The notes: generated by a model not told the origin, from the sequence alone. Counted from the first letter of the stretch, positions 1,989-63,199 are shown. The stretch: DNA of 64,000 bases from Acidobacteriota bacterium (GCA_965197285.1 OZ240092.1:2660280-2724279); one strand, 5' to 3'. Numbers and translations: made by a program.

Positions 1989-3566
1989 TCATCGCCTCGT
2001 GCCGGCGGCGATGCTGCGCAATCGTGGCAGGACTTCGCCCACACCCGCCGGCTCGGATTCTGGAATTCCGTAGCTGAAGTACAGTTCTCGGTAAAGGCCG
2101 TGAAGAGCTTCATACGTGGCACGAGCCTCTGTCCGGGGCTCGATGACCCGGTAGCTGGGGCAGAGGGCGTTTTGGGCCTCTTCGACGGTCTCAAAGACTC
2201 CGGCGGCGAGGAAGGCAAAGATTGCCGATCCCAGACTCGTCACTTCCCGTTTCGGAACCAGCACCGGTTTTTGCAGAACGTCGGCGTATACCTGGTTCAG
2301 GACCTGGTTCTTCTGCGGAATTCCACCGCCGTTTATGATCCGGCGAATAGGTCCGCCGTGTTCAGACAGTCGGTCAAGAATAATGCGGGTGTGAAAGGCC
2401 GTGCCTTCTATGGCGGCGAAGAGTTCGTCCCGAGCCGTTGAACTCAAACTCCAACCCAGCGTGATTCCCCCCAGATCGGGGTTGACGAGGACCGTGCGAT
2501 CTCCGTTGTCCCAGGCCAGGCGCAGCAGGCCGGTCTGTCCCGGCAGGTAGTCCTCCAGTCCGCGGGAGAGTTCTGCCACGGTTGTCGCGGCTCGCCGGGC
2601 GATCGCTTCGAAGATGTCTCCGGTGGCGGAGAGCCCGGCCTCAATTCCGTAAAGGTCGGGATGAATGGATCCCTTGACGACTCCACAAACCCCGGGAATC
2701 AGATCCACCTCTCGGGCGATGGCCATAATGCACGAGGAGGTGCCCACCACATTGACCACGTCGCCCTCTCGAATGCCGGCACCAACGGCGTCCCAATGGG
2801 CATCGAAAGCACCCACGGGGATGGGGACACCGGCCTTCAACCCCAGCTTTTCCGCCCAGTCTGCGGCCAACCTTCCAGCCAACTGACTGGATGTCTCATA
2901 ACGCCCCTGAAGCTTTTCGCGAACCCCGCCCAGCAGGGGGTCCACCTGAGCCAGAAACCGCTCCGGAGGCAATCCGCCGAGCGCCTCACTCCACATCCAT
3001 TTATGGCCCATTGCGCAAACGCTTCTGGGTACGGCGGCGGGGTCTTCGATCCCGCACAACACTGCCGCCACCATGTCGCAGTGCTCCAGCGCGGTCGCCA
3101 TCCGGAGACCCTTTTCAGGATTGTGGCGGAGCCAGTGGAGCAACTTGGAAAAGCCCCATTCTGAAGAGTACGCGCCCCCGCACCACCGGATGGCCTCCAG
3201 ATCCAGGCGGTGAGCCATCCGTGTGATCTGCTCCGCTTCCCGAGCAGCTCGATGATCACACCAAAGGTAGTAGTCGTCGAGAGGTTTCAGTTTCTCGTCG
3301 ACTGGGATGACGGTGGACCCGGTCGTGTCGAGGGCCAGCGCCAGAACCTGGCTTCCGTCGACCGCCGACTCGCGCAGGGCTGATCGCATGGCGCGGACCA
3401 GGGCGTCCATATGATCATGGTGTTTCTGGGTAGCGTGGTCGGGATCACTCTTCTTGGGCTCAAGAGGGTAGTCGGCGACCGCACAGCCAAGGGCCCCCTG
3501 TTGGCTGTCCACCATAGAGACCCGAACACTCAACGTGCCGAAATCGACGCCGGCTACAACAGCCAT
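1989..3566 (-). CDS. araB: ribulokinase (FGGY carbohydrate kinase family)
   Basis: 525 aa with N-terminal VDFGT motif and full-length FGGY N and C domains. Length and motifs are typical of AraB. Confidence 0.75.
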   Translation of the reverse strand: MAVVAGVDFGTLSVRVSMVDSQQGALGCAVADYPLEPKKSDPDHATQKHHDHMDALVRAMRSALRESAVDGSQVLALALDTTGSTVIPVDEKLKPLDDYYLWCDHRAAREAEQITRMAHRLDLEAIRWCGGAYSSEWGFSKLLHWLRHNPEKGLRMATALEHCDMVAAVLCGIEDPAAVPRSVCAMGHKWMWSEALGGLPPERFLAQVDPLLGGVREKLQGRYETSSQLAGRLAADWAEKLGLKAGVPIPVGAFDAHWDAVGAGIREGDVVNVVGTSSCIMAIAREVDLIPGVCGVVKGSIHPDLYGIEAGLSATGDIFEAIARRAATTVAELSRGLEDYLPGQTGLLRLAWDNGDRTVLVNPDLGGITLGWSLSSTARDELFAAIEGTAFHTRIILDRLSEHGGPIRRIINGGGIPQKNQVLNQVYADVLQKPVLVPKREVTSLGSAIFAFLAAGVFETVEEAQNALCPSYRVIEPRTEARATYEALHGLYRELYFSYGIPESEPAGVGEVLPRLRSIAAGTRR

Positions 3567-4019
3567 TGCAGAGCCGTCCTGCGAGCTCGGCAGTTCTGCC
3601 GGTCACCAGCGATGTCGGTCCTCGCCCTATCAGTTCTCATCGCCCGATGGCCAAGCCCTGGCGGGCCCTTCTCTCCTTTCCGAGCACACAGTCGAACTCA
3701 ATCTCAGGGTGGGGAGATTGAGATATCCGGTTTCAGAATAGAAGATCGCAGTGCCGGAAGGAAGCCTGGCTAAGCCGCTCAAGAAATTAACCGCCTCGGC
3801 TGACTCGACTGATTAGCCCTTTAAAGACGCGCCTGGGCCTCACAGCCTGGAAAACTCAATAGCCTCCACGGCGGCCTGGCGGTGGACCGAGACTAGTACG
3901 GCTCTCCACTTGAAACTGGCCCGGCATGAGGTAAGATCGCATTCAAAGAACTCGACTCGCGCCCCGCAGGAGGAATGTAACCACACCGGTCAGCTGCAAC
4001 CTGCGATCGGAATGACTCA

Positions 4020-7908: not shown

Positions 7909-9525
7909 CTACTGTCGAAAGCGCCGGCTGTTGATACCGAACTTCTTGACTTTGTAGCCAATGATTCGCTCCGTCGTCCGAAGCAGCCGGGCAGCCCGGG
8001 CCCGGTTGCCCCCGGTGGTCTTCAAAGCATCCTGGATCAACTCCCGCTCGTAGTTCTCGGTGGCGTCCTTGAGTGAGAGACCCACAATGGTCCCCGACGC
8101 TTCAGCGGTCTGCAGTGTTGGGGGAAGATGGTAACTGTGGATTACATTGTCATCACACACGATCACTGCCCGTTCTATCGCGTTCTCCAGCTCCCGAATG
8201 TTCCCAGGCCAATGGTAGGCCGTTAGCATGTCGATGGCTGGGGTTGAGATGCGTCGGACGTTCTTGCGGTGACGCGCGCTGTACTTCTCCAGAAAGTAGT
8301 CGGCCAGCAAGAGAATGTCCGGCTTCCGATCACTCAGAGGCGGCAGGAAAATGGCGAAGACGTTGAGACGATAATACAGATCAACTCGAAAGTCCTTTTC
8401 CGAGATAGCCGATTCGAGGTCTCTGTTGGTTGCCGCGATCAGCCGAACCTCTGCTTTGACTGTGCTGGAGCTGCCCAGAGGCTCAAACTCCTTTTCCTGC
8501 AGAACGCGTAGAAGCTTGACCTGGGTACTCAGCCCGATCTCGCCGATTTCGTCCAGAAACAAGGTCCCCCCCCGGGCCACTTCGAATCTTCCGGCTTTGT
8601 TTTTTTCGGCACCCGTGAAGGCTCCCCTTCGATACCCGAAAAGCTCCGACTCGATCAGGGTCTCGGGCAGGGCGGCGCAGCTCACCTTGACAAACGGCTT
8701 GTCGGCCCGAAGAGAATTATCATGAATCGAACGCGCGATCAGTTCCTTCCCGGTCCCCGACGCTCCCCGCAACAGGACGGTTGTGCCGGTGCGGGCAACC
8801 TGGGATATCTGCTCGTAAACCTGCCGGATCGCGCTGCTGTTGCCGACGATATTGGAGAAATCAAAGCCGCTTGCAAGCGGTACGCCCGGAGAGCCGGCCT
8901 TGCCCTCGTTCGACTTCCGCAGCCGCTCCGCCTTGAACATCGTGCCCAGCATCTGGGCCACAACCTCGACGGAGCGGAGCGTGGCTTCATAATCTCTAAG
9001 AGGCTCAAAAAGAACGTCCACGCCGAGAGCTCCCACCACCCGCAGGTCCAGGTAAATCGGAGCGCACAGGAATGTCAGTTTCTGGCGGTCCTCTTCGTTT
9101 CGTCTTCCCGCGCGATTCAGGAACATCGGCTCGCGACTAATCTGTGGGATGACAACCGGCTTTCCGGACTGAACGACCTTACCGATAATTCCTTCCCCAA
9201 GATCGTAGCGAGCGCGGAGTCCTGCCGTGCTGAGCCCCTGCCCTGCCTCGATGTACAGGCTCTTGGAGTCCTCCTCGAGCAAAGCTACGATAGCCCGTAC
9301 TGCCGCCACGTGTTCTTCCAGAACCTCCATGAGACGGGGCAGGGCCGACCGCAGGTTGGGGCTGCTCGAGACAATCCGGATCACCTCGAGGACATAGGCG
9401 AAGGTGCCGGCTTGCGCCGACCGGTCCTGGGTTGCGAGGCGGCCCAGAGGCTTGTTCTTTCTCGGCGTGGGCTGCAAGGCGTCAGGGGCCTCCGTTGAAC
9501 TGGATGGAACCGGGAATTTTGGCAT
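7909..9525 (-). CDS. sigma-54-dependent transcriptional activator with N-terminal GAF domain (NifA/FhlA-like)
   Basis: GAF region followed by an AAA+ sigma-54 interaction domain (GASGTGKE, GAFTGA, ESELFGY motifs) and a C-terminal Fis-type HTH. Confidence 0.85.
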   Translation of the reverse strand: MPKFPVPSSSTEAPDALQPTPRKNKPLGRLATQDRSAQAGTFAYVLEVIRIVSSSPNLRSALPRLMEVLEEHVAAVRAIVALLEEDSKSLYIEAGQGLSTAGLRARYDLGEGIIGKVVQSGKPVVIPQISREPMFLNRAGRRNEEDRQKLTFLCAPIYLDLRVVGALGVDVLFEPLRDYEATLRSVEVVAQMLGTMFKAERLRKSNEGKAGSPGVPLASGFDFSNIVGNSSAIRQVYEQISQVARTGTTVLLRGASGTGKELIARSIHDNSLRADKPFVKVSCAALPETLIESELFGYRRGAFTGAEKNKAGRFEVARGGTLFLDEIGEIGLSTQVKLLRVLQEKEFEPLGSSSTVKAEVRLIAATNRDLESAISEKDFRVDLYYRLNVFAIFLPPLSDRKPDILLLADYFLEKYSARHRKNVRRISTPAIDMLTAYHWPGNIRELENAIERAVIVCDDNVIHSYHLPPTLQTAEASGTIVGLSLKDATENYERELIQDALKTTGGNRARAARLLRTTERIIGYKVKKFGINSRRFRQ

Positions 9526-9639: not shown

Positions 9640-9880
9640 GAAGTAATGTTCATTCTGCCCGAGGCCTCTCGGCCTCGGCTATTTCCTGTCGCCCCCTCCG
9701 GGGGCTGGCTGGGATGACGTCATCCCTTCCCGGGGCCTTACGGCCCCGGCTATTCCCTTGTCGCCCCCTCCGGGGGCTGGCTTCAGGCCGCAGAGCGGCC
9801 GAAAGAGAATAGCCGTGGGCGCCAGCCCACGGAAATCTCCGCCGAGCACCAAGCCCTGGAAGGGCGACAGGGATCTTGGG
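9640..9880. repeat. mosaic intergenic repeat, copy A (GC hairpin units plus a conserved ggccgcag-gcggccgaaaga-aatagccgtgggcg-cagcccacggaaatctccg core)
   Basis: About 75-85% identity to 14770-14990, with a partial copy at 45420-45545. It contains two tandem sub-units and several short GC hairpins (gcccccTCCgggggc, ccgtgggc...gcccacgg). Confidence 0.55.
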
Positions 9881-9913
9881 CAACGGACCTGGACTCTGAA
9901 ACTCCGGAATCCG

Positions 9914-14769: not shown

Positions 14770-14990
14770 TGTTGCCCAAACCTGATTTTTCTGCCGCCCC
14801 CTCCGGGGGCTGCCTTGGAGGACGTCGTCCTGTACCGGGGCCTTGCGGCCCCGGCTATATTCTCACGCCCCCTTCGGGGGCTGTCTTCAGGCCGCAGCGC
14901 GGCCGAAAGAAAATAGCCGTGGGCGTCAGCCCACGGAAATCTCCGTCAATTCTAGAGCCCTGAAGGGGCGACAGAGATTTGGGCGAATTC
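14770..14990. repeat. mosaic intergenic repeat, copy B
   Basis: Aligns with copy A across gccccctccgggggctg, ggggccttgcggccccggctat and ggccgcagcgcggccgaaagaaaatagccgtgggcgtcagcccacggaaatctccg. Confidence 0.55.
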
Positions 14991-36559: not shown

Positions 36560-38211
36560 CCCGGATTATGCAAGAGATCTAAATTCAAGCGAGATTTGGG
36601 CCCAGAAAAAAGGCCGTAGCTCTCTGATATAAAAGGGTTTAGAGAAACAATGACCCTAAACAGGAGCTACGGCAATGTCAAAAACAGTCTGCCAGAATAC
36701 CCTGCCATTTCATAGCCACAGAAACATCACGGCTCGTTTTGATGGGGGGAGCCTCACTTCCGACGCAGGATGGTTGTTGTTTGGATCCCTGGATCGTCAA
36801 CATCGATTGTGCGAGGGCTTCAGTTCGTGTATTGCGGAAAGTCGAGACCGACGCTACGTTCGTCATGACCTGTTGAAGTTGATCCGACAACGAGTCTTGC
36901 AGATCGTGGCCGGCTACGAAGACTGTAACGACGCCGATACGCTGCGCTCGGATCCGATGCTCAAGACCGTCTGTGATCAGTTGCCAGAGAGCGATCCCGA
37001 TTTGGCCACCCAGCCGACTTTCTCCCGCCTGGAGAACTCCGTCACCAAGAAGGATCTGATGCGTCTGAGCCGGTGGCTGCCAGGCCGTTATGTGCGCTCC
37101 CTGAAGAAGAGACGTCCCAGCAAGATCATCCTGGATCTGGACAGTACCGACGACCACACTCACGGCCAACAGGAGTTCTCCTTCTACCACGGGTATTACC
37201 GAAACCACATTCTGCATCCTTTGCTGATCTTCGATGCCGACACGGGAGACCTGGTCTGTGCCGTGTTGAGACCTGGCAACAAGGGGGCTGCCTCTCACAT
37301 CGTGCCCATTCTGAAGCGAGTCGTGGAGGCCATCCGACAAGCAGTGGGGACGGATGTCGAGATTGAGATTCGGGCCGACAGCGGCTTTGCCACGCCTCGG
37401 CTCTACGAGTTCTGTGAATGTGAAGAGAATAAACTCCAGTATGTCATTGGGTTAAGTCGAAACCCTCGCCTGCAGCGAGTGGTCGAGCCCCTGCTGGATT
37501 CGACTCGGCTGAGGTTCCTTGAGCTGGAGGAAAAACAGCGTCAGTTTGACGAGTTTCTTTATCGAGCCCACAGCTGGGATCGATCCCGTCGCGTCATTGT
37601 CAAAGTGGAGGTCGATCAGCGTGGCATCAATCGTCGCTTTGTAGTTACCAACCGGGACGATCTCTGCTCCCAATCACTTTATGACCACTACACAAACCGA
37701 GGGCAGACCGAGAACTTCATCAAGGCCTTCAAGAATCATCTGAGCATGGACCGACTCAGCTGTCATCGATTCCTGGCCAATCAGTTTCGACTCCTCCTGC
37801 ATGCACTGGCTTACCAGATGTTCGTGCGCCTGCGCGACTATCTTCACGGAACCCCCTGGCACAAGCTCGAAATCGAAACCTTACGTCGTCGGGTCCTCAA
37901 GATTGGGGCCCGGATCCGACAAACCACTCGACGCATCTGGGTCCATCTTTCCTCAGCCTTCCCCGAACAACCCCTCTTCCACCTCGTCTTGAGTCGCCTG
38001 AACTCCAGTTAGCTTTTCCCAGCTCCCCCGAAAAACCGCTTCCGACACTCATCCAGGCCCAGATCTGTCTGAAATTCACTCCCCAAACCACTCAAACGCC
38101 TCGCCAACCCATATTCTTCGCAAATCCGCCTGTCACACCTGCCCGCTTCCGAGTTGGGCCACTTCTCGAGTCGTTTTTCAACACCGAACTACGGTTCTTG
38201 CATAATCCGGG
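36560..38211 (+). mobile_element. IS1380-like insertion sequence, copy 1 (1652 bp) with 4-bp CTAG target duplication
   Basis: Inverted repeats CCCGGATTATGCAAGA...TCTTGCATAATCCGGG. CTAG at 36556-36559 and 38212-38215. Confidence 0.8.
36675..38012 (+). CDS. DDE transposase, IS1380-family-like (445 aa)
   Basis: N-terminal ...GGSLTSDAGWLLF...QIVAGYEDCNDADTLRSDP motif. The 445-aa size and the element's CC termini fit IS1380/IS4-like elements. Confidence 0.75.
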   Translation: MSKTVCQNTLPFHSHRNITARFDGGSLTSDAGWLLFGSLDRQHRLCEGFSSCIAESRDRRYVRHDLLKLIRQRVLQIVAGYEDCNDADTLRSDPMLKTVCDQLPESDPDLATQPTFSRLENSVTKKDLMRLSRWLPGRYVRSLKKRRPSKIILDLDSTDDHTHGQQEFSFYHGYYRNHILHPLLIFDADTGDLVCAVLRPGNKGAASHIVPILKRVVEAIRQAVGTDVEIEIRADSGFATPRLYEFCECEENKLQYVIGLSRNPRLQRVVEPLLDSTRLRFLELEEKQRQFDEFLYRAHSWDRSRRVIVKVEVDQRGINRRFVVTNRDDLCSQSLYDHYTNRGQTENFIKAFKNHLSMDRLSCHRFLANQFRLLLHALAYQMFVRLRDYLHGTPWHKLEIETLRRRVLKIGARIRQTTRRIWVHLSSAFPEQPLFHLVLSRLNSS

Positions 38212-45419: not shown

Positions 45420-45545
45420 GAAGCTCCGGGGGCTTGTCGTGAAGGCCGCGAAGCGGCCGGAAGGGAATAGCCGTGGGCGCAAGCCCACGGACGACGGCCG
45501 AAACGAAGGAATCAGCCCTGAAGGGGCGACAGATACCGTTCGGAG
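45420..45545. repeat. mosaic intergenic repeat, partial copy C
   Basis: Shares ggccggaagggaatagccgtgggcgcaagcccacgga and ccctgaaggggcgacag with copies A and B. Confidence 0.45.
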
Positions 45546-46789: not shown

Positions 46790-48442
46790 CCCGGATTATG
46801 CAAGAACCGTAGTTCGGTGTTGAAAAACGACTCGAGAAGTGGCCCAACTCGGAAGCGGGCAGGTGTGACAGGCGGATTTGCGAAGAATATGGGTTGGCGA
46901 GGCGTTTGAGTGGTTTGGGGAGTGAATTTCAGACAGATCTGGGCCTGGATGAGTGTCGGAAGCGGTTTTTCGGGGGAGCTGGGAAAAGCTAACTGGAGTT
47001 CAGGCGACTCAAGACGAGGTGGAAGAGGGGTTGTTCGGGGAAGGCTGAGGAAAGATGGACCCAGATGCGTCGAGTGGTTTGTCGGATCCGGGCCCCAATC
47101 TTGAGGACCCGACGACGTAAGGTTTCGATTTCGAGCTTGTGCCAGGGGGTTCCGTGAAGATAGTCGCGCAGGCGCACGAACATCTGGTAAGCCAGTGCAT
47201 GCAGGAGGAGTCGAAACTGATTGGCCAGGAATCGATGACAGCTGAGTCGGTCCATGCTCAGATGATTCTTGAAGGCCTTGATGAAGTTCTCGGTCTGCCC
47301 TCGGTTTGTGTAGTGGTCATAAAGTGATTGGGAGCAGAGATCGTCCCGGTTGGTAACTACAAAGCGACGATTGATGCCACGCTGATCGACCTCCACTTTG
47401 ACAATGACGCGACGGGATCGATCCCAGCTGTGGGCTCGATAAAGAAACTCGTCAAACTGACGCTGTTTTTCCTCCAGCTCAAGGAACCTCAGCCGAGTCG
47501 AATCCAGCAGGGGCTCGACCACTCGCTGCAGGCGAGGGTTTCGACTTAACCCAATGACATACTGGAGTTTATTCTCTTCACATTCACAGAACTCGTAGAG
47601 CCGAGGCGTGGCAAAGCCGCTGTCGGCCCGAATCTCAATCTCGACTCCCGGCCCCACTGCTTGTCGGATGGCCTCCACGACTCGCTTCAGAATGGGCACG
47701 ATGTGAGAGGCAGCCCCCTTGTTGCCAGGTCTCAACACGGCACAGACCAGGTCGCCCGTGTCGGCATCGAAGATCAGCAAAGGATGCAGAATGTGGTTTC
47801 GGTAATACCCGTGGTAGAAGGAGAACTCCTGCTGACCGTGAGTGTGGTCGTCGGTACTGTCCAGATCCAGGATGATCTTGCTGGGACGTCTCTTCTTCAG
47901 GGAGCGCACATAACGGCCTAGCAGCCACTGGCTCAGACGCATCAGATCCTTCTTGGTGACGGAGTTCTCCAGGCGGGAGAAAGTCGGCTGGGTGGCCAAA
48001 TCGGGATCGCTCTCTGGCAACTGATCACAGACTGTCTTGAGCATCGGATCCGAGCGCAGCGTATCGGCGTCATTACAGTCTTCGTAGCCGGCCACGATCT
48101 GCAAGACTCGTTGTCGGATCAACTTCAACAGGTCATGACGAACGTAGCGTCGGTCTCGACTTTCCGCAATACACGAACTGAAGCCCTCGCACAATCGATG
48201 TTGACGATCCAGGGATCCAAACAACAACCATCCTGCGTCGGAAGTGAGGCTCCCTCCATCAAAACGCGTCGTGATCTTTCTGTGGCTGTGAAATGGCAGG
48301 GTATTCTGGCAGACTGTTTTTGACATTGCCGTAGCTCCTGTTTAGGGTCTTTGTTTCTCTAAACCCTTTTATATCAGAGGGCTACGGCTTTTTCCTGGAG
48401 CCAGAATCTCACTCGGATTCAGATCTTTTGCATAATCCGGGC
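46790..48442 (-). mobile_element. IS1380-like insertion sequence, copy 2 (inverted relative to copy 1) with CTAG target duplication
   Basis: Same inverted repeats as copy 1. CTAG at 46786-46789 and about 48443-48446. Transposase about 98% identical to copy 1. Confidence 0.8.
46989..48326 (-). CDS. DDE transposase, IS1380-family-like
   Basis: 445 aa. Differs from copy 1 at a handful of residues (KITTRF, QWLLGRY, GPGVEIE). Confidence 0.75.
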   Translation of the reverse strand: MSKTVCQNTLPFHSHRKITTRFDGGSLTSDAGWLLFGSLDRQHRLCEGFSSCIAESRDRRYVRHDLLKLIRQRVLQIVAGYEDCNDADTLRSDPMLKTVCDQLPESDPDLATQPTFSRLENSVTKKDLMRLSQWLLGRYVRSLKKRRPSKIILDLDSTDDHTHGQQEFSFYHGYYRNHILHPLLIFDADTGDLVCAVLRPGNKGAASHIVPILKRVVEAIRQAVGPGVEIEIRADSGFATPRLYEFCECEENKLQYVIGLSRNPRLQRVVEPLLDSTRLRFLELEEKQRQFDEFLYRAHSWDRSRRVIVKVEVDQRGINRRFVVTNRDDLCSQSLYDHYTNRGQTENFIKAFKNHLSMDRLSCHRFLANQFRLLLHALAYQMFVRLRDYLHGTPWHKLEIETLRRRVLKIGARIRQTTRRIWVHLSSAFPEQPLFHLVLSRLNSS

Positions 48443-57425: not shown

Positions 57426-57644
57426 GCGGAATTCCAGATATTCCAAATTATTCGCTTCGCTCATTGTGTGTCAGCGACGCGGTCAACTGGGTCTTTACGT
57501 CAAGATGCACTAACCCGGATTATGCATGAGATCTGAATCCGAGTGAGATTTGGGCCCAGAAAAAAGGTAAATATTCGGTAAACCCATCCCTCCGCTGACA
57601 CCATCAGATTTTGCTGGACACAGGACTTTCAATCGTGTATATAG

Positions 57645-59282
57645 GTGGACATGGGAGCCGCCCTAGGTCAGGGGGAGCAAGGCGTAGAGAATCGGGAGTC
57701 CCGGCAGCGGGCGTCGACAGCCGGCGTTCAGATCCGGGTGGATAAGGAGGAGTACATCAGCTTGCGTTGGGCTGCGGCGTACTGGAAGGCCCGGCACGGG
57801 GAAGCGGTCCGACGGAGAACCGATCTCAAGAGCGAAAACGAAGAGCTACGGGCACGCATTCGAGAGTTGGAAGGCTGTCTGTACGGTCGTCGTAGCGAGC
57901 GTTTGGTCTGCGAGGGCAAGAGCCCATCCCGGAGCCAGGTCTCAGCGCGCCCTCGCGGACAGCAGCCGGGGACGCGGGGACATGGTCGAAGCAGTCTGGA
58001 TGGGCTGGAAGCCCGGGAGGAAGTGGCTGATCTGCCCGCAGAGCAGCGGAAGTGTCCCCGCTGCGGACGGCGCCTGGATCCGTTTCCTGGTACCGATGAG
58101 GCCCAGGTGGTAGAGATCGAGACGCGGGTCTGGCGTCGGGTGATCAGACGCAGGCGATACCATCCAAGCTGTGCTTGTGGGGTCCTGCCCGGCATCGTGA
58201 CGGCGCCGTCACCAGGCCGTTTGATCCCGCGCGGCAAGCTGGGCATCTCGGTGTGGGTGAGGGTGATCTTGGACAAGTATCTTTATGCGCGTCCCAGCAA
58301 CCGACTGCTGCAAGAACTGGCCGACCAAGGAGTGAGGCTGTCGGCTGGGACGATCGCGGGAGGGCTGAGGAAACTGCTCCCGCTGTTGGAGCCGGTCCGG
58401 GAGGCCATCCGTGTCAGGCAGTTGAGCGAGGATCGTTGGCAGGCTGACGAGACCGGCTGGCGGGTGTTCGAGGAGGTGGAGGGCAAGATAGGTCACGGCT
58501 GGCATCTGTGGGTGTTCCGATCCCCTTCGACGGTAGTGTTCACGCTGTCTCCCAGCCGCTCGGCCCAGGTGCCGGAGGCGCACTTCGGAGGCACTGCGGC
58601 CGGCATTCTGCTGAGCGACCGCTACGTTGTGTACAAGAAGTTGGCCAGACAATGGGAGGGTCTGGAGTTGGCCTTTTGCTGGGCCCACGTGCGACGCGAC
58701 TTTTTTTCCCTGGCCAAGTCCTGGCCCGAGTTGGAGGGGTGGGCGATGAGTTGGGTGGAGGGGATCGGAGGCCTGTTCGATCTGAATCGGTGTCGCGTGC
58801 AGGCCCGAGAACAGCCTGCCGGCTTTGCCGCCCGGGATCGGGAACTGCGGGGGGCGGTGCTGGGACTGGAGAGGCAGCGCGATGCGGAGTTGCAGAGCCG
58901 GGTCCTGCATGGGGCCTGCAGGAAGGTGCTGCGCCGATTGGAGCGACACTGGGAAGGGTTGACCGTCTTTTTGGATCACCCCGAGGTGGCCATGGACAAC
59001 AACGCTTCAGAGCGCGCTTTGCGAGGCCCGGTGGTGGGTCGCAAGAACTACTACGGCTCAGGCAGTCGGTCTAGCGCCCGTCTGGCCGCGGTTGTGTTCA
59101 CGATTCTGCAAACCTTGCAGCTGTGGGAGATCAATCCGCAACGCTGGTTGAGTTGCTATCTGCAGTGCTGCGCCGAATCGGGCAACCGGGCGCCGCCCCA
59201 ACTGACGAGATTCCTGCCCTGGGAAATGGACCCCGACCGAAGAGCGGCCTGGGGTCGACCCGGTGGTCGGGAGGCGGCATGA
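57645..59282 (+). CDS. IS66 family transposase TnpC
   Basis: Leucine zipper, Zn-finger CPRCGRRL, DETGWRV, CWAHVRRDF and DNNASERALRG motifs. Confidence 0.85.
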   Translation: MDMGAALGQGEQGVENRESRQRASTAGVQIRVDKEEYISLRWAAAYWKARHGEAVRRRTDLKSENEELRARIRELEGCLYGRRSERLVCEGKSPSRSQVSARPRGQQPGTRGHGRSSLDGLEAREEVADLPAEQRKCPRCGRRLDPFPGTDEAQVVEIETRVWRRVIRRRRYHPSCACGVLPGIVTAPSPGRLIPRGKLGISVWVRVILDKYLYARPSNRLLQELADQGVRLSAGTIAGGLRKLLPLLEPVREAIRVRQLSEDRWQADETGWRVFEEVEGKIGHGWHLWVFRSPSTVVFTLSPSRSAQVPEAHFGGTAAGILLSDRYVVYKKLARQWEGLELAFCWAHVRRDFFSLAKSWPELEGWAMSWVEGIGGLFDLNRCRVQAREQPAGFAARDRELRGAVLGLERQRDAELQSRVLHGACRKVLRRLERHWEGLTVFLDHPEVAMDNNASERALRGPVVGRKNYYGSGSRSSARLAAVVFTILQTLQLWEINPQRWLSCYLQCCAESGNRAPPQLTRFLPWEMDPDRRAAWGRPGGREAA

Positions 59283-60157
59283 AGCGCTACTGTGGCCGCA
59301 ACTTCACGGGTCAGGAGATCGGGCAACTGTGCGACTTGATTGCCGACAACCCAACCCGCACGCGCGCTCAGCTGTCTCGATTGGCGTGCCGATTGCTTGA
59401 GTGGCGCAAAACGGACGGTGGCCTCAAGCAGATGAGCTGCCGGGTGGCCATGCTGCGCATGCATCGCGAGGGGCTGCTGCAACTGCCGCCCCCTCGCAAC
59501 CGCAAAGGAGGCTCGGGCCGAATCGAGCACACTTTCTGCAGCGCCCCGCAGCCGCTGCTGTCCCGGCCGGTGCATGAGCTGGCAGGCCTGCATCTGGAGC
59601 CGGTCCTAAGCCGCCCGGACTCCACTTTGTGGAATGAATATATCGACCGCTACCACTATCTGGGATACAAGCCCCTGCCCGGTGCTCAGCTGCGCTACTT
59701 CGCTTGTTCGGAAAACCGCATCCTGGCTCTGCTCGGCTTTGGCGCCGCCGCCTGGAAAACCGCCGCGCGCGACCGCTTCATCGGCTGGCGTCCTTCGGAA
59801 CGGGAGAGGAACCTGCAGCTGATTGTCAACAACGCCCGTTTCTTAATCCTGCCCTGGGTCGAGTCCAAGAACCTGGCCTCCAAGCTACTGGCCATGGCCG
59901 CCCGTCAACTCCCCGAAGACTGGCACAATCGCTACGCCTACCGACCTGTCTTGCTGGAAACCTTCGTCGACACTCAACGCTTCACAGGTGCCTGCTACAA
60001 GGCTGCCAACTGGATCCATGTCGGCCACACCCAAGGGCGCGGAAAGCTGGATCGTAACCACCAAGCCAATCTACCCACCAAGAGCATCTGGCTCTACCCC
60101 TTACGCAAAGACTTCCGCTGTTCGGTTAAGCAACCGTTTTTCTGTAATTTCCTTTAG
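59281..60157 (+). CDS. uncharacterised passenger protein resembling the DUF4338 family (start overlaps tnpC stop as ATGA; C-terminus altered by the IS256 insertion)
   Basis: Motifs ...YIDRYHYLGYKPLPGAQLRYF...LGFGAAAWKTAARDRFIGW...ANWIHVGHTQGRGKLDR. Family assignment is from memory only. Confidence 0.5.
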
Positions 60158-61343
60158 AGAAGGATTTCTCCACCTGTTTTTTCCAGCCGGCCAGGTTCAG
60201 GTATTGGCGGCCGGTTAACCACTCCTCGTGTATCTCTGCAATCACAGCTGAGATGAGCCGCATCGCTGAGGCTTCGTTGGGAAAGATCCCCACCACCCGG
60301 GTTCGTCTCCGGATCTCCCGGTTCAGTCTCTCCAGTCCGTTGATGGTCCGGATCCTTCGCCACCAGCTCCTCGGAAAATCAAACACCGTGAGCCCTTCAT
60401 CCACGTTTTCTTCGAGCCACGTAACGAACTCTGGCGCAATCTTTTCGAATTTCTTGATCACCTTCCCCTTGAGCTCCTCGGCATCCTCTCGAGACGGCGC
60501 ATTGAAGATGTCGCGCAGGGCCTGTGCAATCCGCTGCCGGTCTTCTTTACGACGGGCATATTGCTGAGCATTCTGGCTCAGATGAAACTGGCAGCGGTTC
60601 CAGGGCACTGACGGATAAACCGCTCGCCTGGCCGCCTTCAATCCCGCATGATCATCGCTGACTAACAGCTCGACTCCTCTCAGCCCCCGCCTGTGCAGAT
60701 CCGCCAGAAACTCTCGCCAATGCACTTCTGCTTCGCTCAGCCTGGCGCTCAGACCCAACACCTCTCGCGTGCCGAAACGGTTGATTCCCATGGCTTTCAG
60801 GATAGCCACGTCCTGTACTCTGCCGCCCTTTCGAACCTTCTCGTAGTGGGCATCTAAGTACACGATCGGATACTCCCCCAGCTCTCGGCTTCGAAACTCC
60901 TCCAGCCCTTCGTCCAACATCCCGGCCACTCTCGAGACCTGGGTGGCCGAGATCTCCAGACCACACAACTGCTCGGTAACCTCGGTAACCTTTCTGGTCG
61001 AGACTCCCATCACGTACATCTCGGCGATGGCCAGTTTCAATGCCTTCTCCGAACGGCAGCCTCGCTCCAGCGACTTCGGATAAAAACTCAACCCTCGAAC
61101 CTGGGGAATTTCCAACCGCAGCTCTCCAACCCGGGTCTGTATCCGCTTGCCTTTGAATCCGTTCCGATACCCTCGTCGGTTCTCCGTCCTCTCGTAGGCT
61201 TCCGCTCCCAAGAACTCGCTTCTTTCCAACTGCATGGCCACGTTGAACAGCTTCTCCAAGATCCCTCGAAAGGCTTCTGTTCCTTCCTCGATCAACTCCT
61301 CCAGAATCTCTCGTGGTACTCTCTTTTCCAGGTCTGGGTTCAT
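60126..61343 (-). CDS. IS256 family (mutator-type) transposase
   Basis: MNPDLEKRVPREILEELIEEGTEAFRGILEKLFNVAMQLERSEFLGAEAYERTENRRGYRNG is the canonical IS256 transposase N-terminus, followed by a DDE region. Confidence 0.85.
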   Translation of the reverse strand: MNPDLEKRVPREILEELIEEGTEAFRGILEKLFNVAMQLERSEFLGAEAYERTENRRGYRNGFKGKRIQTRVGELRLEIPQVRGLSFYPKSLERGCRSEKALKLAIAEMYVMGVSTRKVTEVTEQLCGLEISATQVSRVAGMLDEGLEEFRSRELGEYPIVYLDAHYEKVRKGGRVQDVAILKAMGINRFGTREVLGLSARLSEAEVHWREFLADLHRRGLRGVELLVSDDHAGLKAARRAVYPSVPWNRCQFHLSQNAQQYARRKEDRQRIAQALRDIFNAPSREDAEELKGKVIKKFEKIAPEFVTWLEENVDEGLTVFDFPRSWWRRIRTINGLERLNREIRRRTRVVGIFPNEASAMRLISAVIAEIHEEWLTGRQYLNLAGWKKQVEKSFSKGNYRKTVA

Positions 61344-61445
61344 GGATTCTCCTTTCCAGATTTGCGTTTCTGTTTTTGGAGAAATCCTGTCCCAGACCTC
61401 TGTCTTTTCGACTTAGGCCTGACCAGAATTTACAGAAAAAAAGTT
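60140..61445 (-). mobile_element. IS256-family insertion sequence, copy 2 (boundaries approximate)
   Basis: Imperfect terminal inverted repeats sharing the core TTTTTCTGTAA at about 60143 and 61425-61447. About 100 nt leader before the transposase start. Confidence 0.5.
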
Positions 61446-61600
61446 ACACTACTCTGTTCCCTGCGCTCAACTTGAGTTTCCCTGTAACCCAACGCTCGAG
61501 ATTACGCTTACGGGTTTACCGAATATTTACGAAAAAAGGCCGTAGCTCTCTGATATAAAAGGGTTTACATAAACAACGACCCTAAACAGGAGCTACGGCA

Positions 61601-62938
61601 ATGTTGAAAGCAGTCTGCCAGAATACCCTGCTATTTCACAGCCACCGAAAGATCACGGCGCGTTTTGATGGGGGGAGTCTGACTTCCGACGCAGGACGGT
61701 TGTTGTTTGGATCGCTGGATCGGCAACATCGGTTGTGCGAGGGCTTCAGTTCGTGTATTTCGGAAAGCCGGGACCGACGCTACGTTCGTCATGACCTGTT
61801 GAAGTTGATTCGACAACGAGTCTTGCAGATCGTGGCCGGCTACGAAGACTGTAATGACGCCGATACGCTGCGCTCCGATCCGATGCTCAAGACAGTCTGT
61901 GATCAGTTGCCCGAGAGCGATCCCGATTTGGCCACCCAGCCGACTTTCTCCCGTTTGGAGAACTCCGTCACCAAGAAGGATCTGATGCGTCTGAGCCAGT
62001 GGCTGCTAGGCCGTTATGTGCGCTCCCTGAAGAAGAGACGTCCCAGCAAGATCATCCTGGATCTGGACAGTACCGACGACCACACTCACGGTCAGCAGGA
62101 GTTCTCCTTCTACCATGGGTATTACCGAAACCACATTCTGCATCCTTTGCTGATCTTCGATGCCGACACGGGCGACCTGGTGTGTGTCGTGTTGAGACCT
62201 GGCAACAAGGGGGCTGCCTCTCACATCGTGCCCATTCTGAAGCGAGTCGTGGAGGCCATCCGACAAGGAGTGGGGACGGATGTCGAGATTGAGATTCGGG
62301 CCGACAGCGGCTTTGCCACGCCTCGGCTCTACGAGTTCTGTGAAGGTGAAGAGAATCAACTCCAATATGTCATTGGGTTAAGTCGAAACCCTCGCCTGCA
62401 GCGAGTGGTCGAGCCGCTGCTGGATTCGACTCGGCTGCAGTTCGTTGAGCTGGAGGAAAAACAGCGTCAGTTTGACGAGTTTCTTTATCGAGCCCACAGC
62501 TGGGATCGATCCCGTCGCGTCATTGTCAAAGTGGAGGTCGATCAGCGCGGGATCAATCGTCGCTTTGTGGTCACCAACCGGGACGATCTCTGCTCCCAAT
62601 CACTTTATGACCACTATACAAACCGAGGGCAGACCGAGAACTTCATCAAGGCCTTCAAGAATCATCTGAGCATGGACCGACTCAGCTGTCATCGATTCCT
62701 GGCCAATCAGTTTCGACTCCTCCTGCATGCACTGGCTTACCAGATGTTCGTGCGCCTCCGCGACTATCTGCACGGGACTCCCTGGCACAAGCTCGAAATC
62801 GAAACCTTACGTCGTCGGGTCCTCAAGATCGGGGCCCGCATCCGACAAACCACTCGACGCATCTGGGTCCATCTTTCCTCAGCCTTTCCCGAACAACCCC
62901 TCTTCCACCTCGTCTTGAGTCGCCTCAACTCCAGCTAG
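61601..62938 (+). CDS. DDE transposase, IS1380-family-like (copy 3; MLKAV start variant)
   Basis: 445 aa, about 97% identical to copies 1 and 2. Confidence 0.75.
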   Translation: MLKAVCQNTLLFHSHRKITARFDGGSLTSDAGRLLFGSLDRQHRLCEGFSSCISESRDRRYVRHDLLKLIRQRVLQIVAGYEDCNDADTLRSDPMLKTVCDQLPESDPDLATQPTFSRLENSVTKKDLMRLSQWLLGRYVRSLKKRRPSKIILDLDSTDDHTHGQQEFSFYHGYYRNHILHPLLIFDADTGDLVCVVLRPGNKGAASHIVPILKRVVEAIRQGVGTDVEIEIRADSGFATPRLYEFCEGEENQLQYVIGLSRNPRLQRVVEPLLDSTRLQFVELEEKQRQFDEFLYRAHSWDRSRRVIVKVEVDQRGINRRFVVTNRDDLCSQSLYDHYTNRGQTENFIKAFKNHLSMDRLSCHRFLANQFRLLLHALAYQMFVRLRDYLHGTPWHKLEIETLRRRVLKIGARIRQTTRRIWVHLSSAFPEQPLFHLVLSRLNSS

Positions 62939-63199
62939 CTTCTCCCAGTTCCCCAAAAAACCGCTTCCGATACTCATCCAGGCCCAGATCTGTCTGAAAT
63001 TCACTCCCCCAACCACTCAAACGCCTCCCCAACCGATATTCTTCGCAAATCCGCCTGTCACACCTGCCCGCTTCCGAGTTGGGCCACTTCTCGACTCGTT
63101 TTTCAACACCGGACTACGGTTTTTGCATAATCCGGGCTAACGAGCCGTCGACAGTATCCCCAATTCCAAAGTTGTTGCCGGTTTTCAAACTGCCGAGTA

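Follow-up and report, generated by a model that had tools for sequence, protein, structure and literature searches.

We analysed a stretch of 64,000 nucleotides (nt) from an Acidobacteriota bacterium (GCA_965197285.1 OZ240092.1:2660280-2724279), here called the window, in which three insertion sequences (IS) that encode DDE transposases lie one inside the other. An IS1380-family element, the third of its kind in the window, holds an IS66-like element, and this holds an IS256-like element. The genes on either side of the nest, which is intergenic, encode a xylose-isomerase-like protein and a TGS-domain GTPase. From sequence comparison we strongly infer that IS256 entered the IS66-like element, of 2628 base pairs (bp), only once and at another place, and that the resulting 3964-bp composite later jumped into IS1380 copy 3. 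The second gene of the IS66-like element encodes a protein with the DUF4338/'DruA' domain, and this protein most likely acts together with the transposase. The overall explanation (a nest, a composite that moves as a unit and an accessory gene whose product is a transposase partner) is, in our judgement, likely to be correct.

The triple nesting of three IS families had been proposed from the sequence alone, and it was borne out by alignments, target duplications and matches in Pfam and NCBIfam. The terminal inverted repeats of the composite are perfect over 19 bp and start with GTAA (GTAAATATTCGGTAAACCC; 57567-57585 and 61512-61530). They had been described before as perfect 18-bp repeats, which was right as to the match and too short as to the length. 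The same 8-bp sequence, GAAAAAAG, stands on both sides of the 3964-bp insert, so the earlier reading of this repeat as the mark of IS66 holds. The hallmark of the IS66 family is indeed an 8-bp target duplication, with inverted repeats that begin with 5'-GTAA. The insertion point is after base 53 of IS1380 copy 3, and not between bases 54 and 55 as had been given for the same insertion. An undisturbed single GAAAAAAG is found in IS1380 copy 1, as expected; copy 2, for which the same had been claimed, carries the variant CCAGGAAAAAGCC.

Comparison of the composite with the intact 2628-bp element gave a matching prefix of 2557 bases and a matching suffix of 77 bases. As 2557 + 77 equals 2628 + 6, the IS256-like element lies at 60124-61453 and has the 6-bp repeat CTGTTC on both sides. 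It sits within the five 3'-terminal codons of the second gene, and this gene loses no more than its final 4 codons, in place of which a tail of 10 is read from the IS256 end. The contents of the insert (tnpC, a second gene and, at the 3' end of that gene, the IS256 transposase at 60126-61343) are thus as first described. The IS256 transposase matches PF00872 (E = 4e-109) and NF033543 (354 bits, with a cut-off of 150), and the inverted repeats of this element are imperfect.

A search for uninterrupted copies of the two inner elements, suggested by the sequence-only reading, recovered both the intact 2628-bp IS66-like element and solo 1330-bp copies of the IS256-like one, and their ends could be defined in this way. 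An exact-sequence look-up of the IS256 transposase returned six places (L001-L006). The solo copies at L001, L004 and L006 are 1330 bp long, have the ends AGTGACGTAACC...GGTTGCTTAACC and lie in unrelated target sequences. Their flanking repeats vary, with a perfect 8-bp repeat at L004 (AACCCACT), a match at 7 of 8 positions at L001 and none at L006. The IS256 family generally makes target duplications of 8-9 bp. The nested copy differs from this by its 6-bp flanking repeat CTGTTC, and by one diverged terminus (61442-61453), which reads AGTAGTGTAACT against AGTGACGTAACC in the solo copies, with four substitutions in the terminal 12 nt.

An identical 3964-bp IS66::IS256 unit is present at L002 and L003, with 99.8-99.9% identity to that of the window over the whole length. 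Inner junction, 6-bp repeat and diverged IS256 terminus (AGTAGTGTAACT) do not differ between the composites at L002, at L003 and in the window. Each of them has its own perfect 8-bp duplication: GAAAAAAG in the window, GATTCCCC at L002 and TATTGTCG at L003. The first of these loci is on a 4.0-Mb contig of the window's own assembly, while the second was recovered from a different sample, in surroundings that look like a plasmid. The recurrence of the same composite and junction, each time with separate duplications, strongly suggests that IS256 was already aboard before the entry into copy 3.

As for the IS66-like copies in general, these take three forms: the intact one of 2628 bp, one of 3226 bp that bears an IS200/IS605-like element, and the one of 3964 bp that bears IS256. 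Genes for the identical TnpC protein occur on 13 contigs or more, and of the 10 places listed, 9 are on the 4.0-Mb contig of the window's assembly. Intact 2628-bp copies with their own duplications were found at L089, L091, L092 (where the match is 7 of 8) and L093, and the copy at L095 is 2630 bp long. The 3226-bp derivative, in which a 597-bp IS200/IS605-like element interrupts the DruA-like gene, is present at five sites or more (L086-L088, L090 and L094), again with its own duplications. Over the 13 IS66-like copies studied, the 8-bp duplication is perfect in 11 and matches at 7 of 8 positions in 2. More than 20 additional copies in an Acidobacteriota genome likewise show IS66-type ends and an 8-bp duplication. 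More than 13 other sites contain the same IS elements, each time with perfect duplications of their own, which excludes chance for the structure of the nest.

Looking at one nest alone, the simplest reading is that of three successive insertions in place, IS1380 followed by a plain IS66-like element and then by IS256 as the youngest, and direct repeats do flank all three elements. The sequence-only reading had seen here a clear relative chronology of three events. This chronology is contradicted by two unrelated loci that have the identical IS66::IS256 junction together with 8-bp duplications of their own, one of the loci being from a different sample, and by the 6-bp repeat and the diverged terminus (AGTAGTGTAACT against the solo AGTGACGTAACC) that the composites share. 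We consider successive insertion in place very unlikely. Another explanation is a hot spot for IS256 at the 3' end of the DruA-like gene, with independent insertions in the window, L002 and L003. Some IS do have a target preference, and the identical IS256 transposase is active elsewhere in this genome (L001, L004, L006). However, independent events would not repeat four terminal substitutions together with an atypical 6-bp repeat. In addition, the three composites are 99.8-99.9% identical over 3964 bp, and the solo copies occupy unrelated targets. Among the 13 IS66-like copies examined, no IS256 was seen inverted or shifted at this 3' end. A hot spot is therefore extremely improbable. The last explanation of this kind is an assembly artefact, as a genome rich in near-identical IS copies is hard to assemble and repeated copies could be misjoined in a metagenome assembly. 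Yet a public contig deposited independently (L005, ena:ERZ25072076:ctg245659, 1.26 Mb) covers the window's locus and has the same nest, save for one single-nucleotide polymorphism and one 3-nt insertion/deletion. Furthermore, there is a matching target duplication at every junction, as real transposition predicts, and the two parts of IS1380 copy 3 differ from copies 1 and 2 to the same degree, which makes an artefact hardly credible.

The two differences from L005 are the polymorphism at 59398, in the DruA-like gene, and a CTC insertion/deletion at 62717, in the IS1380 transposase gene (445 against 446 amino acids). They indicate that the assembly or strain behind the window is not the same as that of L005, though very close to it. 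As to the host taxon, the flanking PSCyt/PSD1/DUF1501 genes agree with Planctomycetota as well as with Acidobacteriota.

The preferred course of events, a composite formed once and then moved as a unit, very probably started with a single IS256 insertion into a 2628-bp IS66-like element at another place. In the 3964-bp product, the ends and tnpC stayed intact, and the second gene nearly so. This product then transposed whole at least three times by means of these ends and of tnpC, one of the landings being IS1380 copy 3. The IS1380 element was either already at the locus or arrived there loaded, and a single copy is compatible with both. The spread of the 3226-bp derivative to at least five sites indicates that such composites routinely remain mobile in this genome. 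Nesting of IS inside IS is seen in other IS-rich genomes, where likewise each element has its own target duplication. Unlike nesting in general, the IS66::IS256 and IS66::IS200/605-like derivatives can be shown to have kept their mobility and to have multiplied. As nested derivatives go on moving in IS-rich genomes, it is unsafe to take the innermost element as the youngest unless other copies are checked. For a genome rich in IS, the nest itself is nothing unusual. Its three DDE-type elements, new members of families already known, came together through ordinary insertions of the cut-and-paste or copy-and-paste kind, each of which left a duplication.

The IS200/IS605-like element encodes a Y1 transposase of 125-133 amino acids, has no target duplication and lies at approximately 5956-6552 in L086-L088, L090 and L094. 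Its insertion site in the DruA-like gene is GGAGCCGGTC^CTAAGCC. The same element (99.5% identical) is also found at L002:2348-2926, in an IS256 end. There, its left flank reads CTGGAGCCGGTC, like the site in the DruA-like gene and unlike the IS256 sequence, which suggests that the element either strictly requires a certain target or carried flanking DNA along.

The IS66-like element carries only two native genes. TnpC matches PF03050 (E = 3e-58) and NF033517 (300 bits, with a cut-off of 180). There are only 84 nt between the first base of the element (57567) and the start of tnpC, which leaves no room for tnpA or tnpB. The sole other native gene is the DUF4338 gene downstream of tnpC, and its start overlaps the tnpC stop as ATGA. 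The element agrees with the IS66 family, both with the ISBst12 type (tnpC only) and with classical members, in its TnpC, its GTAA ends, its 8-bp duplication and its size of 2.6 kb. Classical IS66 has the genes tnpA-tnpB-tnpC, whereas the element of the window is without tnpA and tnpB and has instead a gene for a 286-residue DUF4338 protein at the 3' end of tnpC. Its termini read GTAAATATTCG, while those of classical IS66 are of the GTAAGCG type. In these terms the element resembles the tnpC-only IS66 group with a different accessory gene, and an IS66-type element in which a DUF4338 gene replaces tnpA and tnpB is a variant architecture. In the literature searched we did not find DUF4338/PF14236 in an IS context, DUF4338 with IS66 or a link of this domain to many transposase families; ISfinder was outside this search and may catalogue the pair.

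Without IS256, the DruA-like protein would end in ...DFRCSLRST and have 286 amino acids. This rebuilt form aligns with homologues of 286 amino acids over 100% of the length and with 91% identity. The protein matches PF14236 (DruA/DUF4338) with an E-value of 9e-49, and there is a weak match to the Pfam Mom family (E = 0.004). Its conserved, invariant motifs are RYHYLG (residues 124-129) and TQGRGKL (residues 251-257).

With the rebuilt protein as query, at least 8000 homologues were found, almost all of about 285 amino acids, and many of their contigs, at 2.3-3 kb, are as long as a single IS. In species-representative genomes, a scan gave 564 loci that encode a relative, and 79 of these were fetched. 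The gene can be present in many copies, with more than 40 in one Acidobacteriota genome and at least 7 on a Methyloprofundus chromosome. Further relatives belong to Gamma- and Deltaproteobacteria, Verrucomicrobiota, Legionellaceae, Bacteroidales and Anaerolineae.

In nearly all fetched loci with enough room upstream, an IS66 tnpC (39-86% identity) ends at the start of the DruA-like gene, and two of the apparent exceptions carry a divergent IS66 tnpC. The ATGA overlap of the two genes is present in 11 of 14 representative elements. Both genes are enclosed by GTAAATATTCG termini and perfect 8-bp duplications in Acidobacteriota, Gammaproteobacteria and Desulfobacterales, and the right end of the Acidobacteriota copies is about 60 nt beyond the DruA-like stop codon. 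Over the same 14 elements, 90 of 91 pairs show higher identity in the DruA-like gene than in tnpC, with medians of 64% and 48%, respectively. From these sequences we infer that the DruA-like gene belongs to the conserved core of an IS66 sublineage that is widespread, and that it is not cargo. The term "passenger gene", used for it earlier, is not compatible with a fixed tnpC synteny, with ends that enclose both genes and with the transposase fusions described below.

Two Acidobacteriota subfamilies of IS66-like elements have the same 19-bp ends, type A (L009 and similar loci) and type B (L037, L038, L043 and L051). In both, the DruA-like gene is 88-91% identical to that of the window, with a tnpC identity of 58% for type A and 85% for type B.

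The same module is also found beside other transposases. At L064, L073 and L083, an orthologous gene (58-63% identical and nested in the IS66-linked clade) follows a PF01609 transposase. This transposase belongs to no named family in NCBIfam, and the ends of its elements are CTG(A/G)GATTCGGAGTA, also given as CTGAGATTCGGAGTA. A metagenome scan with the L064-type transposase yielded 80 loci, 53 of them informative. A DruA-like gene is directly downstream of the transposase in 35 of the informative loci, and a more distant relative is upstream in 4. The remaining 14 have no adjacent DruA-like gene by tblastn; one of them, L126, has a short fragment downstream of the transposase by profile search.

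Furthermore, a profile search over 1.84 billion representative proteins returned 11,659 clusters (at 50% identity) with E <= 1e-3. Among the 150 best clusters, 21 have members of at least 500 amino acids. Of these, 20 were scanned, and 18 turned out to be fusions of a DruA domain with a transposase. The partners in these 18 long members are IS66, Tn5-like, other PF01609, IS630 (DDE_3) and ISAzo13 transposases. A Thiodictyon plasmid protein annotated as "ISAs1 family transposase" is a further fusion. A functional link of DUF4338 to transposases is well supported. The other two long members contain an adenylate/guanylate cyclase domain (P0245, 594 amino acids) and MORN repeats (P0192, 560 amino acids).

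In terms of structure, an AlphaFold model was made from the 292-residue form encoded in the window (282 native residues and the tail of 10), and not from the rebuilt 286-residue form. With a mean predicted local distance difference test score of 81.9, it consists of an N-terminal winged-helix-like domain (residues 1-63) and an alpha/beta domain (105-284). The top match of the model in the PDB by Foldseek is Mom of phage Mu (8bv8; E = 1.2e-5, target-normalised template-modelling score 0.56), followed by GNAT acetyltransferases. For residues 105-284 of the model, 38 PDB chains were matched at E <= 1e-3, again Mom and many GNAT acetyltransferases. Mom is a GNAT-fold DNA adenine modifier with an anti-restriction role. 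It matches the C-terminal domain of the DruA-like protein in structure, but the sequence identity is only 14-16%. Mom also belongs to a phage context, whereas the DruA-like protein is part of an IS and has in addition the predicted N-terminal winged helix, and DNA modification by it would be conjectural. The C-terminal domain is predicted to have the GNAT alpha/beta fold. This is in agreement with the published description of DUF4338 as a GNAT domain (PMC10853773).

The Pfam name of the domain raises the question of Druantia. The PADLOC model for DruA (PDLC00002) matches the DruA-like protein with E = 1.9e-4 and 18.7 bits, over residues 135-219 only. In type I Druantia, the gene for DruA shares an operon with druB, druC, druD and the helicase gene druE. 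None of druB-E was found near the DruA-like gene, whose neighbours are transposases in the window as well as in over 100 related loci. The protein shares the Pfam DUF4338/DruA domain with the DruA of type I Druantia and is otherwise distant from it (286 amino acids against a model of about 407 positions). Because the PADLOC match reaches only 18.7 bits and druB-E are not nearby, the DruA-like protein is not a Druantia component here.

The DUF4338 gene could still be cargo, that is, a phage-defence gene (Druantia DruA) or a Mom-like anti-restriction gene carried for the benefit of the host. Pfam names PF14236 "Druantia protein DruA", NCBI calls some of the homologues "Druantia anti-phage system protein DruA", and the best structural match, Mom, is an anti-restriction DNA modifier. 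It would also fit that copies with a disrupted gene still spread. The low PADLOC score and the missing DruB-E genes speak against such a role, and so do a synteny that is fixed across phyla and the overlap with the stop codon of the transposase gene. Single-polypeptide fusions to at least five transposase families would not be expected for cargo. For this reason we regard the cargo explanation as unlikely and prefer a partner of the transposase. Several findings nevertheless weigh against this preference or against the account of the nest. The derivative with a disrupted DruA-like gene is still present at five or more sites, alongside intact copies in the same genome; the gene is thus either supplied in trans by these copies or not strictly needed for transposition. 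Part of the higher conservation of the DruA-like gene is due to recombination, as in type A the nucleotide identity is 51-71% for tnpC and 80-95% for the DruA-like gene, and the accessory module is evidently exchanged between diverged IS66-like elements. Automatic calling on metagenomes is the source of the fusion genes, a few of which may be artefacts of frameshifts. Lastly, the 6-bp repeat, atypical for IS256, and the four terminal substitutions blur the original IS256 insertion.

As for the possible role of a transposase partner, the DruA-like gene would stand in for the tnpA and tnpB of classical IS66 elements, and its product is probably translationally coupled to tnpC through the ATGA overlap. 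The winged helix would dock the protein on the DNA of the element or on the transposase. The GNAT domain would then transfer an acyl group to a DNA base or a protein, while transposition proceeds or once it is over; this transfer, the chemical step, is a guess from the predicted fold. More broadly, and quite tentatively, DUF4338/'DruA' might primarily be a transposase-partner module that chemically modifies DNA or the transposition machinery and in this way promotes or regulates transposition. It would have been repeatedly captured by, or fused to, IS66, Tn5-like and other IS4-type, IS630, ISAzo13 and ISAs1 transposases, and Druantia type I would have borrowed it from mobile elements. If this is true, thousands of genes annotated as "Druantia DruA" would be IS genes.

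A very large family (11,659 clusters and at least 8000 close homologues) carries a phage-defence name. For the IS-borne genes of this clade, a defence annotation from PF14236 alone would be wrong. The proposed role would also point to an accessory activity in transposition that has not been studied so far, that of a Mom-like acyltransferase. A two-gene IS is a simple system for learning what the DruA domain does, and this is relevant to Druantia type I as well.

Two observations concern DUF4338 genes and element ends in a wider set. On the Thiodictyon plasmid pTs485 (L096), a DUF2235 gene is apparently split by about 5 kb (3354-3881 and 8794-8852). The intervening DNA contains a lone DUF4338 gene, an integrase and IS91 and IS4 transposases, with no annotated transposase adjacent to the DUF4338 gene in a gene table that is incomplete. 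When ends were compared (window 57567-57585, L064:3643-3660 and L098-L172), ATTCGG was seen at bases 7-12 in both IS66-type (GTAAATATTCGG...) and unrelated PF01609-type (CCTGAGATTCGG...) elements. As a binding site for the winged helix this motif was rejected, because it is equally present in PF01609-type elements without the gene (L130, L132, L149 and L153) and so follows the transposase family.

Table 1. Features of the nest and of the related IS1380-family copies, in positions of the window.
Feature	Position	Strand	Basis or remark
IS1380-family copy 1	36560-38211	+	1652 bp
IS1380-family copy 2	46790-48441	-	1652 bp
Left CTAA, target duplication of copy 3	57510-57513	.	repeated at 63137-63140
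Left 53 nt of copy 3, with left inverted repeat CCCGGATTATGCA at 57514-57526	57514-57566	+	alignment to bases 1-53 of copies 1 and 2
Left 8-bp target duplication of composite, GAAAAAAG	57559-57566	.	same as 61531-61538
IS66-family composite, 3964 bp (2628-bp IS66-like + 1330-bp IS256-like + 6-bp repeat)	57567-61530	+	inverted repeats; identical units elsewhere
tnpC, IS66-family DDE transposase, 543 amino acids (alternative GTG start at 57645)	57651-59282	+	PF03050, NF033517
DUF4338/'DruA'-like gene; native part 59279-60123 (282 of 286 codons)	59279-60157	+	PF14236
Left CTGTTC, 6-bp direct repeat beside IS256-like element	60118-60123	.	comparison with intact 2628-bp element
IS256-family element, 1330 bp; transposase 60126-61343 (405 amino acids)	60124-61453	-	PF00872, NF033543; ends set by solo copies
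Right CTGTTC (61454-61459), displaced last DruA-like codons and IS66-like right end	61454-61530	+	77-nt suffix equal to intact element
Right 8-bp target duplication of composite, GAAAAAAG	61531-61538	.	same as 57559-57566
Rest of copy 3: transposase 61601-62938 (445 amino acids), right inverted repeat to 63136	61539-63136	+	PF13701, NF033539, alignment
Right CTAA, target duplication of copy 3	63137-63140	.	repeat of 57510-57513

Comparison of the window with itself revealed three IS1380-family copies of 1.65 kb, the third of them split. With one copy of the 8-bp duplication taken out, copy 3 consists of 57514-57566 and 61539-63136, or 1651 bp. Its alignment to copy 1, which had been set beforehand as the test that could refute the nest, runs from end to end, as does that to copy 2, with 95.6% nucleotide identity and one gap column. 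The four flanking bases are CTAA on both sides of copy 3 (57510-57513 and 63137-63140) and CTAG on both sides of copies 1 and 2. Since they differ between copies, they are a target duplication and lie outside the element. The ends of copy 3 are CCCGGATTATGCA and TGCATAATCCGGG, and its transposase (61601-62938, plus strand) matches PF13701 (E = 1e-144) and NF033539 (378 bits, with a cut-off of 180). By the ISfinder definition, IS1380-family elements have one gene, a length of about 1.6-2 kb, short terminal inverted repeats and a target duplication of 4-5 bp. Copy 3 agrees with this family (e.g. ISEcp1) in its transposase models, its single gene in 1.65 kb, its ends that start with CC and its 4-bp duplication.

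Copy 3 had been called probably dead, since its left end is separated from its transposase, and this was not supported. Several features agree with a copy that can still be used. Both ends and the 445-residue reading frame are intact, and the transposase is identical to those of copies 1 and 2 at 431 of 445 amino acids. The codon differences from copy 1 are 38 synonymous and 14 non-synonymous, which indicates selection on the transposase of copy 3 until recently. Copies 1 and 2, about 95% identical to copy 3, could also provide transposase in trans. Scans for sigma-70-type consensus promoters at the IS1380 left end of copies 1 and 3 gave nothing above shuffled sequences. An exact-sequence look-up of the 445-residue transposase returned no match, and the public contig L005 encodes the 446-residue form.

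Copies 1 and 2 are 98.2% identical, lie in inverted orientation (plus and minus strand) and have CTAG on both sides of each. Between them there are 8.5 kb of housekeeping genes, among these a family-2 glycosyltransferase, ThiC and an M28 peptidase. Such an arrangement could invert through recombination or move as a composite transposon. The self-comparison also revealed short dispersed repeats of about 60-200 bp, with 84-88% identity, at 9655-9881, 14787-14984 and 45424-45491.

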